A stretch of DNA of 64,000 nucleotides from assembly GCF_001677475.2 (NCBI RefSeq), contig NZ_CP015229.1. One strand, given 5' to 3'. Positions 980 to 21,309 of this stretch are shown here, piece by piece; the stretch's first letter is position 1, and each line of letters opens with the position of its first letter. This DNA is from Escherichia coli (GTDB lineage: Bacteria > Pseudomonadota > Gammaproteobacteria > Enterobacterales > Enterobacteriaceae). Below the pieces are notes generated by a model. That model was not told where the DNA came from and searched no databases. It saw only the letters and a program-made list of their open reading frames with translations. The translations under genes were made by a program, and so were the position numbers.

Positions 980-3900
980 GTGGCGATGATAAATTTAAGT
1001 AAGGAAGCAACGGTGGGTAAAGCATTAACCCCTATTGCTATACTTATGATGTTGTCTTTTCCTGTAGCTTCTCAAGCGGCGGGATTAGTCATAAAAAATG
1101 GAACGGTATATAACGCCAATGGTGTGCCAGTCGTTGACATCAACAAACCTAACGGTAGCGGTTTATCTCATAATATCTGGGATAACCTAAACGTTGATAA
1201 AAATGGTGTCGTTTTCAATAACAGCGCTAATGAATCCAGTACTTCACTTGCCGGAAATATTCAGGGAAACAGTAATCTGACCTCCGGGTCGGCGAAGGTG
1301 ATCCTGAATGAGGTTACTTCCAAAAATCCTTCAACCATTAATGGGATGATGGAAGTTGCAGGGGATAAAGCGGATCTGATTATTGCCAACCCGAATGGTA
1401 TTACTGTAAACGGTGGTGGTTCAATCAATACAGGTAAACTGACCTTAACCACCGGGACGCCGGATATCCAGGATGACAAGCTGGCCGGTTATTCCGTGAA
1501 CGGCGGTACCATTACGCTCGGTAAACTGGATAACGCCAGCCCGACAGAAATTCTGTCCCGTAACGTGGTGGTTAACGGCAAAGTGTCTGCCGATGAGCTG
1601 AACGTTGTTGCTGGCAATAACTATGTTAACGCCGCAGGCCAGGTGACCGGTAGCGTATCCGCCACGGGTTCCCGTAACGGTTACAGCGTAGATGTTGCCA
1701 AACTGGGCGGAATGTATGCGAACAAAATCAGTCTGGTTAGCACCGAGAAAGGTGTAGGGGTTCGCAACCTCGGCGTTATTGCTGGGGGTGTTAATGGTGT
1801 CAGCATCGATTCCAAAGGTAACCTGTTAAATAGCAATGCCCAGATTCAGTCTGCAAGCACGATCAACCTGACGACAAATGGTACTCTGGATAACACCACC
1901 GGTACGGTGACATCTGTAGGCACTATCTCGCTCAATACCAACAAGAATACTATCGTGAATACTCGTGCGGGTAACATCTCTACGATGGGCGATATCTACG
2001 TTAACAGCGGTACGATTGACAATACCAACGGCAAGCTTGCGGCAGCAGGTATGCTGGCGGTCGATACCAATAACGCCACGCTGATTAACTCTGGTAAAGG
2101 GAGTTCTGTCGGGATTGAAGCGGGTATCGTGGCGCTGAAAACCGGGACGCTCAACAACAGCAATGGTCAGATTCGAGGCGGTTATGTGGGGCTTGAATCA
2201 GGCGCGTTGAATAACAACAACGGTGATATTCAGACCACTGGCGACATCGCCATTATCAGTAACGGTAATGTGGATAACAACAAAGGTCTGATCCGTTCGT
2301 CCACCGGGCATATCGTTATTGGTGCGGCAGGTAGCGTAAATAATGGTTCAACCAAAACCGCCGATACCGGCAGTTCTGACTCTCTGGGCATTATTGCAGA
2401 TACCGGCGTAGAAATTGGTGCGAACAACATCAATAACAACGGCGGACAGATTGCGTCTAATGGCAACGTCTCCCTGTCAAGTTACAGCACGGTCGACGAT
2501 TATGCGGGCAAAATTCTGTCCAACAGCAAAGTGATTATCAAGGGAAGCTCACTGCGTAACGATACCGGGGGGATCAGCGGTAAGCAGGGTATTGAAGTCG
2601 CCGTTGGCGGCAGCCTGACCAATAACATTGGCGTGATCAGCTCTGAAGAGGGTGATATCTCCCTGTTAGCCAACTCAGTGGACAACCACGGCGGCTTCAT
2701 GATGGGGCAGAACATCACGATGGAGTCGATGTCTGGCGTTAATAACAACACCGCGCTGATCGTGGCCAGCAAAAAACTGAAGATAAACGCGTTCGGTAAT
2801 ATTGAAAACCGCGATGGCAATAACTTCGGTAATGCTTATGGTCTGTACTTCGGCATGCCTCAGCAAACGGGTGGAATGGTCGGCAAGGAAGGCATCGAGC
2901 TTTCCGGGCAGAACATCTATAACAACAACAGTCGTTTCATCGCTGAGGATGGTCCTCTGACTCTGCAGGCGCAGAACACGTTCGACAACACGCGTGCTCT
3001 GGTCACCAGCGGGTCGGATGCCTCTATTCAGGTTGGCGGAACGTATTACAACAACTACGCTACCACCTGGAGTGCGGGCAACCTGGATATCGACGCGACC
3101 ACGCTGCAAAACAGCAGCAGCGGTACGATGATCGATAACAATGCGACCGGGTTCATAGCATCTGATAAAAATCTGTCACTGGAAGTGGTGAATAGCCTTA
3201 CCAACTACGGCTGGATCAGCGGTAAAGGCGATGTTGATGTCACGGTGAATAACGGCAACCTGTACAACCGCAATACTATTGCGGCTGAAAAGGGGCTGGA
3301 TATTGCCGCGTTGAACGGTATTGAAAACTGGAAGGATATTTCTGCTGGCGGCGACCTGACGATGAACACCAATCGCCATGTGACCAACAACTCCAACAGC
3401 AATATGGTGGGGCAGAATATCGTTATTAACGCGGTTAACGATATCAACAACCGTGGCAACATTGTCAGTGATTTTGACCTGAACGTGACAACCAAAGGCA
3501 ACCTGTATAACTATCTCTATATGGTGGGTTATGGGGATGTCGCATTAACGGCAAATAGCGTGGCGAACAATAACGCGACCATCGAAGCGACAGGCGATCT
3601 GATTATCGATTCGAAGGGCAACGTGGGCAATTACCACGGTAAGCTGCATGCGTTGAACGGCGTGTTGTCTGTAAAAGGCAGCAATCTGAACAACGACTAC
3701 GGTGAAATTCGTGGTTATGACGACGTCACGCTGGCACTGACGGGCAACTACGACAGCTTTAAGGGCTCGCTGACCTCTGAAACGGGCGACGTGACTTTGA
3801 CGGCGAACATCATAGACAACGCCTATGGTCTGATTGCCGGTGAGAATGTTTCTGTCGATGCTAGATCGACGATTTACAACAACACTGCGCTGATCGCGGC

Positions 3901-4792
3901 GAATAAAAAGCTGGTTATTAACGCTGGCGGCAACCTCGAAAACCGCGACGGGAATAACTTCCTGCGTAATAACGGCGCGCTATTTGGGATCACCGACAAC
4001 GTTGGCGGCATCGTAGGTAAAGAAGGTGTCACGCTTTCTGCTCAGAACGTCTACAACAATAACAGCAGCATCATCGCTGAAAATGGTCCGCTTAATCTGC
4101 TGTCCAGGGGAACGTTGGATAATACCCGCGCGCTCCTCAGCAGTGGGGCTGATGCCATCATCCGTGCGGCAGGGACGTTCTACAACAACTATGCCACCAC
4201 TTACAGCGCCGGTAATCTCGACGTTTATGCGGCGTCGTTGAGTAACGCCAGTGATGGTCGTCTGGAAGACAATACCTCCACGGGTGTGATTGCGTCTGAC
4301 AAAAACCTGGATCTGACCGTGGATAACAGCGTCACGAACTATGGTTGGATCAGCGGTAAAGGGGATGTGCATTTCAATGTTCTGAAAGGCACGCTGTATA
4401 ACCGTAATGCCATCGCAGCGGGCAACGCGCTGACCATTAATGCCCTGAACGGTGTTGAGAACTTTAAAGACATTGTGGCGGGAACTGCGCTGACTATTGA
4501 TACGCAGAAGTATGTTACCAACAACAGCAACAGTAATATGTTGGGGCAAACCATCGCGATCAATGCCGTGAATGACATTAATAACCGTGGAAATATTGTG
4601 GGTGATTATTCTCTGGGGGTTAAAACCACCGGTAATATTTATAACTACCTCAATATGCTGAGTTATGGTGTCGCTGGCGTATCGGCAAATAAGGTTACGA
4701 ATAGCGGTAAAAACGCTGTTCTCGGTGGCTTCTACGGTTTAGCGTTAGAAGCAAACGAAACTGATAACACCGGTACTATTGTCGGCATGTAA
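980..4792 (+). CDS. Two-partner secretion exoprotein (TpsA; filamentous hemagglutinin/adhesin-like) with N-terminal TPS secretion domain
   Basis: 1270-aa ORF; extended signal peptide; conserved ANPNGI motif and N/G/T-rich beta-helix-like repeats; GTG start at 980 with AAGGAAAA upstream (alternative ATG at 986). Confidence 0.85.
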   Translation: MAMINLSKEATVGKALTPIAILMMLSFPVASQAAGLVIKNGTVYNANGVPVVDINKPNGSGLSHNIWDNLNVDKNGVVFNNSANESSTSLAGNIQGNSNLTSGSAKVILNEVTSKNPSTINGMMEVAGDKADLIIANPNGITVNGGGSINTGKLTLTTGTPDIQDDKLAGYSVNGGTITLGKLDNASPTEILSRNVVVNGKVSADELNVVAGNNYVNAAGQVTGSVSATGSRNGYSVDVAKLGGMYANKISLVSTEKGVGVRNLGVIAGGVNGVSIDSKGNLLNSNAQIQSASTINLTTNGTLDNTTGTVTSVGTISLNTNKNTIVNTRAGNISTMGDIYVNSGTIDNTNGKLAAAGMLAVDTNNATLINSGKGSSVGIEAGIVALKTGTLNNSNGQIRGGYVGLESGALNNNNGDIQTTGDIAIISNGNVDNNKGLIRSSTGHIVIGAAGSVNNGSTKTADTGSSDSLGIIADTGVEIGANNINNNGGQIASNGNVSLSSYSTVDDYAGKILSNSKVIIKGSSLRNDTGGISGKQGIEVAVGGSLTNNIGVISSEEGDISLLANSVDNHGGFMMGQNITMESMSGVNNNTALIVASKKLKINAFGNIENRDGNNFGNAYGLYFGMPQQTGGMVGKEGIELSGQNIYNNNSRFIAEDGPLTLQAQNTFDNTRALVTSGSDASIQVGGTYYNNYATTWSAGNLDIDATTLQNSSSGTMIDNNATGFIASDKNLSLEVVNSLTNYGWISGKGDVDVTVNNGNLYNRNTIAAEKGLDIAALNGIENWKDISAGGDLTMNTNRHVTNNSNSNMVGQNIVINAVNDINNRGNIVSDFDLNVTTKGNLYNYLYMVGYGDVALTANSVANNNATIEATGDLIIDSKGNVGNYHGKLHALNGVLSVKGSNLNNDYGEIRGYDDVTLALTGNYDSFKGSLTSETGDVTLTANIIDNAYGLIAGENVSVDARSTIYNNTALIAANKKLVINAGGNLENRDGNNFLRNNGALFGITDNVGGIVGKEGVTLSAQNVYNNNSSIIAENGPLNLLSRGTLDNTRALLSSGADAIIRAAGTFYNNYATTYSAGNLDVYAASLSNASDGRLEDNTSTGVIASDKNLDLTVDNSVTNYGWISGKGDVHFNVLKGTLYNRNAIAAGNALTINALNGVENFKDIVAGTALTIDTQKYVTNNSNSNMLGQTIAINAVNDINNRGNIVGDYSLGVKTTGNIYNYLNMLSYGVAGVSANKVTNSGKNAVLGGFYGLALEANETDNTGTIVGM
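2753..4790 (+). repeat. Internal tandem duplication within tpsA (unit about 1134 bp; copy 2 runs to the C-terminus)
   Basis: Protein segments starting NTALIVASKKLKINAFGNIENRDGNNF and NTALIAANKKLVINAGGNLENRDGNNF align over about 290 residues; DNA copies begin at about 2753 and 3887. Confidence 0.75.
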
Positions 4793-20326: not shown

Positions 20327-21309
20327 TTCCTGATTATTTAACTTTTATTCGCTTTCAGGATAAACGAAATCTGATATACATTTATGCTATTGGACTTATT
20401 CTGATAGGCTTTTATTGGAAAAATGCAGGGTTTACTTTTCCATCAGAGGATATTGGTGTCGTTAGTGGGATTCTGGCCCTGGTGCTGTATAATTTTATTT
20501 TTGATCTCAAGGCGTACTGGGCTTATAAATGCGTCACGAAGAATATCGATTTTTCGTGGTTTAAGAAAAAGCAGAACCACAAAATAGAATTATTTCTTAC
20601 ACAACCTCTGGTGGCAGGATTTCTGTCGTTAATCATGTTGAGTGCAATGAGTTGGGGGCTATACCAGCTTCTACCCTCGTTATATGCGCTGTTCCTGATT
20701 TCGTTACTTGGGCTGTTGGTCATCTTTCTGCTGTTTCGGATGATCCGCACCAGTTATGTCAAGCAGGTCGCTATTTCAGTAGCGAAAAAAGTAAAATATA
20801 AAAGTCTGACTCGCTATGTGCTGCTTTCGGTGTGCATCTCAACGGTTGTTAACCTGCTTACTATCAGCCCGTTGCGTAACAGTGATTCTTTTGTGACAGA
20901 GGGGCAGTGGTTAACGTTTAAATCGATAATTGCATTGCTCATTCTTTGTGGCGTAGTGTTGGCGATTAATCTGTTTTTTCTGCGCTTCTCCAAGCGGTAC
21001 GCTTTTCTGGGTAGGCTTTTTTTGCAGGAAATCGATCTGTTTTTCTCCAGTGAAAATGCGTTGTCGACCTTTTTTGCCAAGCCGCTTTGGCTTCGGTTAT
21101 TCATATTGCTGGTTATTGAAGTGATGTGGATTACGCTGGTGTCGGTATTGGCAACGCTTGTGGAATGGCGGATTTGGTTTGAAGCCTATTTTTTACTCTG
21201 CTATGTACCATGCTTAATTTACTATTTTTTCCATTGTCGATGCCTCTGGCATAACGATTTTATGATGGCATGTGACATGTATTTCCGTTGGGGGCATTTT
21301 AATAAGTGA
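20323..21309 (+). CDS. Polytopic inner-membrane protein of unknown function (Phe/Leu-rich, AT-rich coding sequence)
   Basis: 328-aa ORF with about 8 hydrophobic segments; ATGA overlap with FabD-like gene. Confidence 0.55.

Follow-up and report, generated by a model that had tools for sequence, protein, structure and literature searches.

Seventeen co-directional genes at positions 980–21309 of a 64,000-nucleotide stretch of Escherichia coli DNA (contig NZ_CP015229.1, RefSeq assembly GCF_001677475.2; hereafter the window) join the two-partner secretion (TPS) pair OtpA/OtpB to 15 genes for lipid synthesis and envelope transport. The same order of genes recurs in more than 30 bacterial species, and on balance we find it probable that the 17 genes constitute one conserved functional module, which would make a lipid and display it together with OtpA at the cell surface. 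The case is built on gene content, catalytic motifs, protein folds, synteny, co-occurrence, and purifying selection, all observed in this analysis, and from these we infer a functional coupling of OtpA with the lipid genes.

The 17 Genes Are Intact and Lie in O-Island 47

All 17 plus-strand open reading frames (ORFs) are intact and tightly spaced, and the ORF check of the window upheld every coordinate of the initial annotation (Table 1). The gene for an AcpS-type phosphopantetheinyl transferase starts 15 bp 3′ of otpB and is followed by 14 further plus-strand ORFs, the last of which is ycdU. Computed with RefSeq-equivalent start codons, intergenic distances range from −17 to +88 bp; there is one 17-nt overlap (ATPase/218-amino acid [aa] protein gene), one 0-bp junction, and three 4-nt overlaps of the ATGA type (KS3/317-aa protein, LolA-like/barrel, and malonyltransferase/ycdU genes), which confirms the short gap after otpB and the several overlaps that had been described initially.

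The segment is 97.9% identical over its full length to the copy in E. coli O157:H7, and its best match among 5426 complete E. coli genomes, searched by megablast, reaches 98.7%. All 17 genes are intact and are collinear with their O157:H7 counterparts; the acyl carrier protein (ACP) gene is identical, and the other 16 show dN/dS values of 0–0.29. Intactness, collinearity, and these low ratios indicate maintained genes under purifying selection rather than chance ORFs. In O157:H7, the segment lies 3′ of an EAL-domain gene, a grvA-type regulator gene, and a fimbrial operon, and ends at ycdU. Sequence identity, placement between ycdT (dgcT) and ycdU, and the neighbors on the O157 side all agree in identifying the locus as the right-hand half of O157:H7 O-island 47. 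This is the enterohemorrhagic E. coli (EHEC) island with fatty-acid-like genes to which the initial annotation had pointed. O-island 47 has been defined as z1528–z1556 (PMC8565820), and reviews of it treat only its regulator GrvA.

The Association of OtpA with the Lipid Genes Is Conserved

The 317-aa protein served as a cluster-specific marker in a search for related loci. Six marker contexts (in Kosakonia, Acinetobacter equi, a Neisseria, Aeromonas veronii, Utexia, and Klebsiella aerogenes) showed the same order from tpsA to the malonyl-CoA:ACP transacylase (MCAT) gene, followed by a ycdU homologue. A reverse search began with OtpA relatives in Enterobacter mori and Leclercia, genera not among the listed marker hits; there too, the otpA relative is followed by tpsB and the lipid genes and preceded by unrelated genes. 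The association was thus found from both directions, from the lipid marker to the TPS pair and from OtpA relatives to the lipid genes.

A census restricted to one genome per species comprised 37 loci, typed by a tblastn matrix; its search pattern came from a 12-sequence subset, the 24-sequence alignment being too divergent. Three cluster types emerged. Type A, with all 17 genes including otpA, otpB, and the genes for a LolA-like carrier and an outer-membrane barrel, is represented by E. coli and 32 further informative loci (Enterobacterales, Acinetobacter, Aeromonas, Orbaceae, and Neisseria). Its fixed order, identical in all 32, is otpA, otpB, acpS, ketoreductase (KR), dehydratase (DH), ACP, GcvT-like, ketosynthase/chain-length factor (KS/CLF), KS3, 317-aa protein, ATPase, 218-aa protein, permease, LolA-like, barrel, MCAT, and ycdU. 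These loci belong to two proteobacterial classes and span Enterobacter, Kosakonia, Klebsiella, Mixta, Pantoea, Rahnella, Leclercia, Silvania, Acinetobacter, Aeromonas, Utexia, and a Neisseria, and the flanks are unrelated between loci: EAL-domain genes, an RNase T gene, capsule export genes, dxs-ispA, and others.

Type B, found in Proteus mirabilis, Providencia, Morganella, and one metagenome, has an OtpA-family tpsA directly before acpS and keeps the MCAT and YcdU-like genes. Its lipid proteins are deeply diverged (33%–58% identity), and its tpsA product can be aligned collinearly with OtpA along 709 residues (31% identity, E = 3e-78). The OtpA-family gene of the P. mirabilis locus (L052, 10001–12517) has no tpsB within 10 kb upstream; the exact 838-aa protein occurs in 615 assembly-collection blocks and is apparently widespread in P. 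mirabilis. Type C, found in Serratia species, Erwinia endophytica, Edaphovirga, Entomohabitans, and locus L013, has the LolA-like and barrel genes and an extra short-chain dehydrogenase/reductase (SDR) gene, with no leading TPS gene. Constant co-occurrence of TPS and lipid genes, which the initial annotation had proposed to check, held almost perfectly in E. coli and in type A; it failed for type C and, as regards tpsB, the LolA-like gene, and the barrel gene, for type B.

This distribution leads to the conclusion that the lipid/export core is probably older than its association with a TPS gene and can stand alone, and that an OtpA-family exoprotein would have joined it later and then been retained through deep divergence and through transfer between families and classes. 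A functional partnership would be expected to leave retained adjacency of this kind, for which chance is a poor explanation.

Several loci depart from the general layout in detail. The added SDR/KR gene of type C lies between the permease and LolA-like genes (L013, L014, L041, L043, L044, L046, L047, L049, and L051), and in L014 the phosphopantetheinyl transferase gene is relocated to the cluster end. Extra TPS-domain genes stand 3′ of the ycdU-like gene in Utexia (two genes; L006, 18263–21017) and in the type C locus of Erwinia endophytica (one gene; L051, 20129–20866). In Mixta mediterraneensis (L017, about 13650–14929), approximately 1.1 kb of extra DNA between the permease and LolA-like genes may be an insertion.

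Distribution in E. coli and a Remnant in K-12

With at least 80% coverage counted as presence for the TPS pair in the megablast comparison, the pair occurs in 379, the lipid part in 380, and the whole 20.5-kb segment in 378 of the 5426 genomes. The pangenome comparison proposed in the initial annotation thus speaks for co-occurrence, as does the full order in 32 distant loci with unrelated flanks. Approximately 2290 of the 5426 genomes carry a remnant only, and approximately 2750 have no match at all. As for plasmid carriage, a few megaplasmid-sized records matched, along with several chromosome-sized records mislabeled as plasmids.

The remnant has the order dgcT, IS3 element, MCAT pseudogene without its N-terminus, ycdU, and serX, as in K-12. 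The 3′ part of the MCAT gene survives in K-12 as the pseudogene ymdE (b1028), next to an intact ycdU (window 19983–21309 compared with K-12 [L008] and L009). In remnant genomes, IS3 directly adjoins the truncated MCAT gene, with two truncation end points 185 bp apart. An IS3-truncated MCAT gene beside an intact ycdU identifies ymdE and ycdU of K-12 as the tail of a deleted module, and the presence of ycdU in K-12 as a deletion remnant means that the classical O-island boundary cuts through the module. In passages of a mastitis-genomics paper, ymdE and ycdU figure as uncharacterized candidate fitness genes and the K-12 MCAT remnant appears as well, and those passages draw no tie between these genes and a deleted module (PMC4951805).

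The OtpA/OtpB Pair

The TPS pair is the published OtpA/OtpB system, ECs1282–1283. OtpB-dependent secretion of OtpA was reportedly demonstrated experimentally by Choi, Dawson, and Bernstein in 2007, and OtpA is said to be secreted in K-12 with OtpB alone and to be released into the medium. That earlier work handled the same two genes as a pair alone; the conserved partner found here is the set of 15 downstream genes and not the upstream fimbrial locus. A preprint names otpA as ECs1282 and reports that the earlier work suggested a link to the upstream fimbrial locus (bioRxiv 10.1101/2020.04.13.038984), and a tabulation gives the function of OtpA as “Unknown” (PMC5422565). The label “adhesin” used for OtpA in the initial annotation is therefore not established. 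A role for OtpA as an accessory of the fimbrial locus was considered and rejected: fimbrial genes do not stand beside otpA in Kosakonia, Acinetobacter, Enterobacter mori, Leclercia, or Proteus.

Both proteins have the features of their families. A 99%-identical cluster of OtpA sequences (P0121) carries TPS and Fil_haemagg domains (PF05860 and PF05594), and OtpA sequences show a signal peptide and an NPNGI motif; OtpA has no effector domain, no cysteine, and no lipobox. The 1270-aa OtpA of the window corresponds to an 892-aa form with an internal duplication of approximately 380 aa of β-helix repeats; the region concerned is residues 872–1270 (nucleotides about 3593–4792). The 892-aa form (P0128) occurs in some E. 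coli strains, and variants of 1129 and 1290 aa occur in Enterobacter. OtpB matches ShlB (7e-70), POTRA_2 (2.6e-15), and POTRA_3 (2.2e-13), as expected of a TpsB transporter.

Table 1. The 17 genes and the leader that precedes them (positions in the window).
Feature	Position	Strand	Features and profile matches
Leader, presumed promoter/regulatory region	1..979	.	Non-coding, AT-rich, ~34% GC (composition profile)
otpA, TpsA exoprotein of the OtpA family, 1270 aa	980..4792	+	GTG start; signal peptide, TPS domain, β-helix repeats
otpB, TpsB outer-membrane transporter	4881..6500	+	Two POTRA domains and ShlB barrel
AcpS-type 4′-phosphopantetheinyl transferase	6516..6884	+	TIGR00516 acpS, 79.6 bits, above cut-off 59.8
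FabG-like 3-oxoacyl-ACP reductase (KR)	6898..7659	+	NF009466, 227.5 bits, cut-off 222; YxxxK present
FabZ/FabA-fold dehydratase (DH) with C-terminal extension	7663..8211	+	FabZ models, residues 17–80, 1.6e-20, below cut-offs
Acyl carrier protein (ACP), dedicated	8233..8514	+	NF006617, 1.2e-11; DS motif present
GcvT-family protein (aminomethyltransferase-fold, folate-dependent)	8550..9710	+	GcvT models, 8.8e-40, far below equivalog cut-offs
KS-CLF fusion, 852 aa	9784..12342	+	FabF model, 1.8e-135 over residues 6–398
KS3, divergent KS-like protein, 407 aa	12347..13570	+	Weak KS matches, best AmcF 1.8e-17
317-aa cluster-specific protein, rare family	13567..14520	+	No domain match
LolD/MacB-type ABC ATPase	14531..15238	+	TIGR02211 LolD, 7.8e-68, below cut-off (228 vs 308 bits)
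218-aa exported accessory protein	15222..15878	+	Signal peptide, two invariant Cys; gene between ATPase and permease genes
Type VII ABC permease, LolC/E/F- and MacB-like	15879..17189	+	lolCE model, 1.2e-25 (90 vs 362 bits)
Periplasmic LolA-superfamily carrier	17198..17986	+	PF17131 (LolA_like/TP_0789-like), Pfam 1.9e-35
Outer-membrane β-barrel channel, 462 aa	17983..19371	+	OprD/Occ- and AlgE-like fold, internal helical segment, 18-strand type
FabD-like malonyl-CoA:ACP transacylase (MCAT)	19382..20326	+	TIGR00128, 2e-52, below cut-off; GHSxG, Arg, His motifs
ycdU, polytopic inner-membrane protein	20323..21309	+	All-alpha polytopic model, pLDDT 88.6

Biosynthesis Genes

The domain assignments (ShlB with two POTRA domains, TPS, ACPS, KR, FabZ-like, ACP, GCV_T, a double KS, LolD-like, LolC/E-like, FabD-like, LolA_like, and an outer-membrane β-barrel) agree with the initial reading of the cluster. 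Among the cluster enzymes, only AcpS and KR reach an NCBIfam cut-off; the former is presumably dedicated to the ACP of the cluster. The motifs of KR, DH, ACP, and MCAT all read as intact, DH having an HFPxxPxxPGV motif and its catalytic Glu, and DH orthologues carrying PF07977. Of all proteins of the module, the KS-CLF fusion shows the highest conservation, with a mean identity of 79% in the close clade. Its N-terminal FabF-like ketosynthase keeps the Cys-His-His triad (motif reading), and its C-terminal KS-like domain has lost all three catalytic residues, with Glu replacing Cys, which marks it as a chain-length-factor-like partner. KS and CLF are likewise fused in one polypeptide in PfaC of the polyunsaturated fatty acid synthases. 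The complete elongation cycle of the housekeeping type II fatty acid synthase (FAS) is not encoded, as the 17 genes include no enoyl reductase and no homologue of the initiating KS III, FabH.

The GcvT-family protein is found in all loci of all three cluster types, and its best solved relative is the T-protein 1woo (2.5e-24). In KS3, the first His, a Lys, and a Tyr at the position of the second His do not vary. Some lineages have Asn or Ser at the Cys position, so that KS3 is unlikely to be a canonical condensing enzyme. The 317-aa protein has no Pfam, NCBIfam, or PDB match, profile search of PDB sequences included, and its family amounts to 56 clusters among 1.84 billion representatives. In the metagenomic locus L014, KS3 and the 317-aa protein are fused as one 784-aa protein. 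Profiles of the two align weakly and in register over the N-terminal half of KS3 (probability 33%, E = 4.6e-4), such that a conserved Cys of the 317-aa protein faces the KS active-site Cys. The 317-aa protein is thus a probable partner of KS3 and possibly has a degenerate thiolase fold, and the two can be read as a second, degenerate KS-like pair.

Export Genes and YcdU

The ATP-binding cassette (ABC) genes resemble the Lol lipoprotein pathway (LolCDE or LolDF, LolA, and LolB) in pairing a type VII permease and ATPase with a LolA-superfamily carrier, although the scores fall far below the equivalog cut-offs (Table 1) and the nearest solved relatives are LolE and LolF. The permease has four transmembrane helices and a large periplasmic domain, its orthologues carry MacB_PCD and FtsX, and its PDB matches are LolE (1.2e-13), LolF (1.3e-12), and MacB (7e-5); encoded by a single gene, it is presumed to form a homodimer. 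The carrier belongs to PF17131 and is not a canonical LolA, its nearest structure being the LolA-superfamily protein NE2245 (3buu; 2.6e-34), itself uncharacterized. No LolB is encoded in the cluster, which has an OprD/AlgE-like barrel instead, and the presumed cargo is the lipid made by the cluster and not lipoproteins. A profile search against PDB sequences returned nothing for the 462-aa barrel. The 218-aa protein, kept in all three cluster types, has an N-terminal hydrophobic segment, and neither Pfam nor a profile search of PDB sequences gave a match.

YcdU homologues close the module in other genera (39%–55% identity) and share a conserved C-terminal motif. A fold search of solved structures with the YcdU model gave generic helix bundles only, no Pfam family was matched, a PDB profile search was empty, and comparison with AFDB50 gave only uncharacterized relatives. 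Remote proteins of the YcdU fold were seen in Paraburkholderia pallida, Verminephrobacter eiseniae, Aquipseudomonas alcaligenes, and Desulfatitalea alkaliphila (TM 0.8–0.85, 15%–18% identity), with a weaker match in Xenorhabdus cabanillasii (TM about 0.5, 12% identity). Given these relatives of the predicted fold, the lipid module may reach well beyond the taxa sampled.

Leader Region, Transcription, and Surroundings

The leader 5′ of otpA has no ORF of at least 70 aa within the window and no match to an Rfam family, and a promoter scan gave weak promoter-like matches only, at 200–241. An AT-rich leader of approximately 1 kb might fit silencing by nucleoid proteins. Across the cluster, counts of promoter- and terminator-like sites were at or below the shuffle expectation, with no excess of such sites inside, so that scans of this kind cannot decide the operon structure; one transcription unit for all 17 genes is compatible with the sequence.

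A tRNA gene lies at 21506–21590 on the minus strand, approximately 200 bp past ycdU, where K-12-type genomes have tRNA-Ser; this neighboring gene was the sole match in an Rfam scan of the locus. The corresponding place after ycdU is taken by an integrase-led island in the O157:H7 record; no such insertion occurs in the window.

A Proposed Model for Lipid Synthesis and Display

The components are all of known kinds, and their combination appears to be new. No characterized system of this composition, and no publication that ties TPS to ketosynthases or to this cluster, was found in the searchable literature, which holds few subscription journals, in line with what the initial annotation had supposed. 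Based on homology and intact motifs, the type II FAS/polyketide synthase (PKS)-like set (AcpS-type transferase, ACP, malonyltransferase, active KS fused to a CLF-like domain, KR, and DH) would build an acyl or polyketide-like chain on the ACP of the module. As the cluster has no enoyl reductase, the chain would either remain unsaturated or be completed by an enzyme of the host. Non-canonical chemistry may come from the GcvT-like enzyme and the KS3/317-aa pair and could consist in forming the starter, in a one-carbon modification, or in releasing the chain. LolCDE, MacB, and other type VII ABC transporters load their substrates at the periplasmic face of the inner membrane, and a separate step is consequently needed to bring the lipid there, for which YcdU is a candidate. 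The LolDF-like ABC extractor, together with the 218-aa periplasmic accessory protein, would then pull the lipid out, the LolA-like carrier would shuttle it across the periplasm, and the OprD/AlgE-like barrel would pass it into or through the outer membrane. In the least certain step, OtpA, exported by OtpB, would act as an extracellular partner that binds the lipid, carries it, or is held at the surface by it, and the outcome would be a lipid–protein assembly displayed on the cell surface. The identity of the product, the order of the transport steps, and the link between OtpA and the lipid are what we infer from the gene set and its conservation.

A more far-reaching version of this model seems possible to us, though doubtful. 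OtpA-family proteins would be the first TPS passengers to depend on a dedicated, operon-made lipid, forming a lipid-loaded or lipid-anchored β-helix fiber; the GcvT-like enzyme and the second, non-canonical KS pair would perform unprecedented chemistry, and YcdU, as a new fold, would feed a Lol-like route. The whole would be an unrecognized envelope assembly system.

Several observations weigh against a single pathway of synthesis and display. Type B loci have no tpsB, LolA-like, or barrel gene, and their ABC genes are divergent, which does not fit a single route to the surface. Type C loci have the full lipid/export set without a leading TPS gene, from which it follows that the lipid pathway does not need OtpA; conversely, if OtpA is secreted in K-12 by OtpB alone, as reported in earlier work, secretion itself is independent of the lipid genes. 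OtpB divergence does track lipid-gene divergence (Spearman rho 0.85 across 25 type A loci), which speaks for co-inheritance, but the correlation is computed against one reference, and the relatedness of the hosts would produce part of it. Gene position and conservation are the sole basis of the roles suggested for YcdU, the 218-aa protein, the 317-aa protein, and the GcvT-like enzyme. Domain searches recognized no thioesterase, acyltransferase, or AMP-ligase among the cluster genes, and in view of the missing thioesterase and acyltransferase, chain release is unexplained. Finally, literature searches, locus-tag searches included, found no expression or biochemical data on the lipid genes.

Alternative Explanations

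The TPS pair and the lipid/export genes could be neighbors on one island without a shared function, which we regard as unlikely. The Serratia/Erwinia-type clade, in which the lipid module has no leading TPS genes, the reported sufficiency of OtpB for OtpA secretion, and the lack of any direct sign of co-transcription in the promoter and terminator scans would all be expected in that case. Mere proximity does not readily account, however, for an adjacency and order kept in 32 loci of two proteobacterial classes at different insertion sites, nor for an OtpA-family gene that still abuts acpS in deeply diverged Morganellaceae. Lipid genes were moreover present in every OtpA-family context examined, and in E. 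coli co-occurrence is near-perfect, with 15 bp at the otpB–acpS junction. If the genes do act together, OtpA might instead be covalently lipidated by an acyl chain made by the cluster and become a lipid-anchored TPS exoprotein. Analogues are the acyl-ACP-dependent acylation of RTX toxins and the glycosylation of HMW1 and EtpA by enzymes of their own operons; the HMW1ABC locus of Haemophilus and the EtpBAC locus of enterotoxigenic E. coli each encode one passenger-modifying glycosyltransferase. The present locus is like these in linking a TPS pair to accessory genes, but it has 15 genes for lipid synthesis and envelope transport. The synteny evidence serves this reading as well as it serves surface display, Morganellaceae tie OtpA to the biosynthetic half by keeping OtpA, biosynthesis, the ABC transporter, and YcdU without the LolA-like protein and barrel, and no lipid acceptor or acyltransferase of known type is encoded. 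Yet domain searches recognized no protein acyltransferase, OtpA has neither a cysteine nor a lipobox, it is reportedly released into the medium, and the TPS-less clade has the same core pathway; covalent lipidation seems distinctly improbable.

Instead of a membrane or surface lipid, the cluster could make a small, diffusible, polyketide-like molecule, such as a polyene, toxin, or signal, that the ABC transporter and the barrel pump out of the cell, with OtpA as at most a delivery aid; this has a small chance of being correct, slightly above that of covalent lipidation. Highly reducing type II PKS-like systems have the same enzyme set of KS-CLF, KR, and DH with no enoyl reductase, small molecules are exported by pumps of the MacB type, the ATPase matches the darobactin exporter DarD (7.5e-61), and the OprD/AlgE-like barrel has a channel fold. 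Cispentacin-type systems share with the cluster a discrete ACP, KS/CLF-type pairs, and a FabZ-like enzyme, and the ACP, DH, KS-CLF, and KS3 proteins give weak best matches to AmcB, AmcE, and AmcF; these lie far below the cut-offs (AmcF, the best match of KS3, scores 63 vs 325 bits), and the remaining gene set differs. Against a diffusible product stand a LolA-superfamily carrier kept in two of the three cluster types, which fits a hydrophobic cargo shielded in the periplasm, a permease nearer to LolE/LolF than to MacB, and the absence of a membrane-fusion protein or TolC partner from the cluster. Membership in the aryl polyene (APE), xanthomonadin, or flexirubin family is very improbable and is the only alternative that the data exclude. 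The logic is shared, with a type II FAS-like set of dedicated ACP, KS/CLF pair, KR, and DH, a LolA-like protein, and a membrane exporter; in APE-type clusters, the last two are believed to deliver the lipid to the outer membrane (PMC8041823). Dehydratase orthologues also give faint ApeI-like Pfam matches, and KR matches the flexirubin reductase FlxB (3.9e-54, below the cut-off of that model). On gene content, however, membership was rejected: neither the 17 genes nor the orthologous loci include an ApeH-type AMP-ligase or aryl-starter activation (TAL, XanB2), and among the 17 genes there is no thioesterase, lysophospholipid acyltransferase, or glycosyltransferase. An ABC type VII transporter takes the place of an MMPL/RND exporter. 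The cluster further differs by its GcvT-like enzyme, its second degenerate KS pair, its outer-membrane barrel, and YcdU, by having a phosphopantetheinyl transferase and a malonyltransferase of its own, and by the TPS pair.

Significance

Neither the locus nor the TPS pair nor the “fatty-acid-like” annotation is new. The 17-gene unit, its three types, the OtpA–lipid association, the KS3/317-aa fusion, the folds of the barrel and YcdU, and the nature of ymdE-ycdU as a remnant appear to be undescribed in the searchable literature. Since 2007, OtpA/OtpB has served as a model TPS system lacking an assigned function, and the “fatty-acid-like” genes of O-island 47 have stood uncharacterized since the O157:H7 genome; for both, the unit offers a testable hypothesis. 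Recognition of ymdE and ycdU as the IS3-truncated tail of the module bears on claims about mastitis fitness genes (PMC4951805). The module occurs in clinically relevant bacteria, including EHEC, Proteus mirabilis, Klebsiella, Enterobacter, and Acinetobacter, and with three or four proteins that have no characterized relative, it is a reasonable place to look for new lipid chemistry and for a variant of Lol-like transport.

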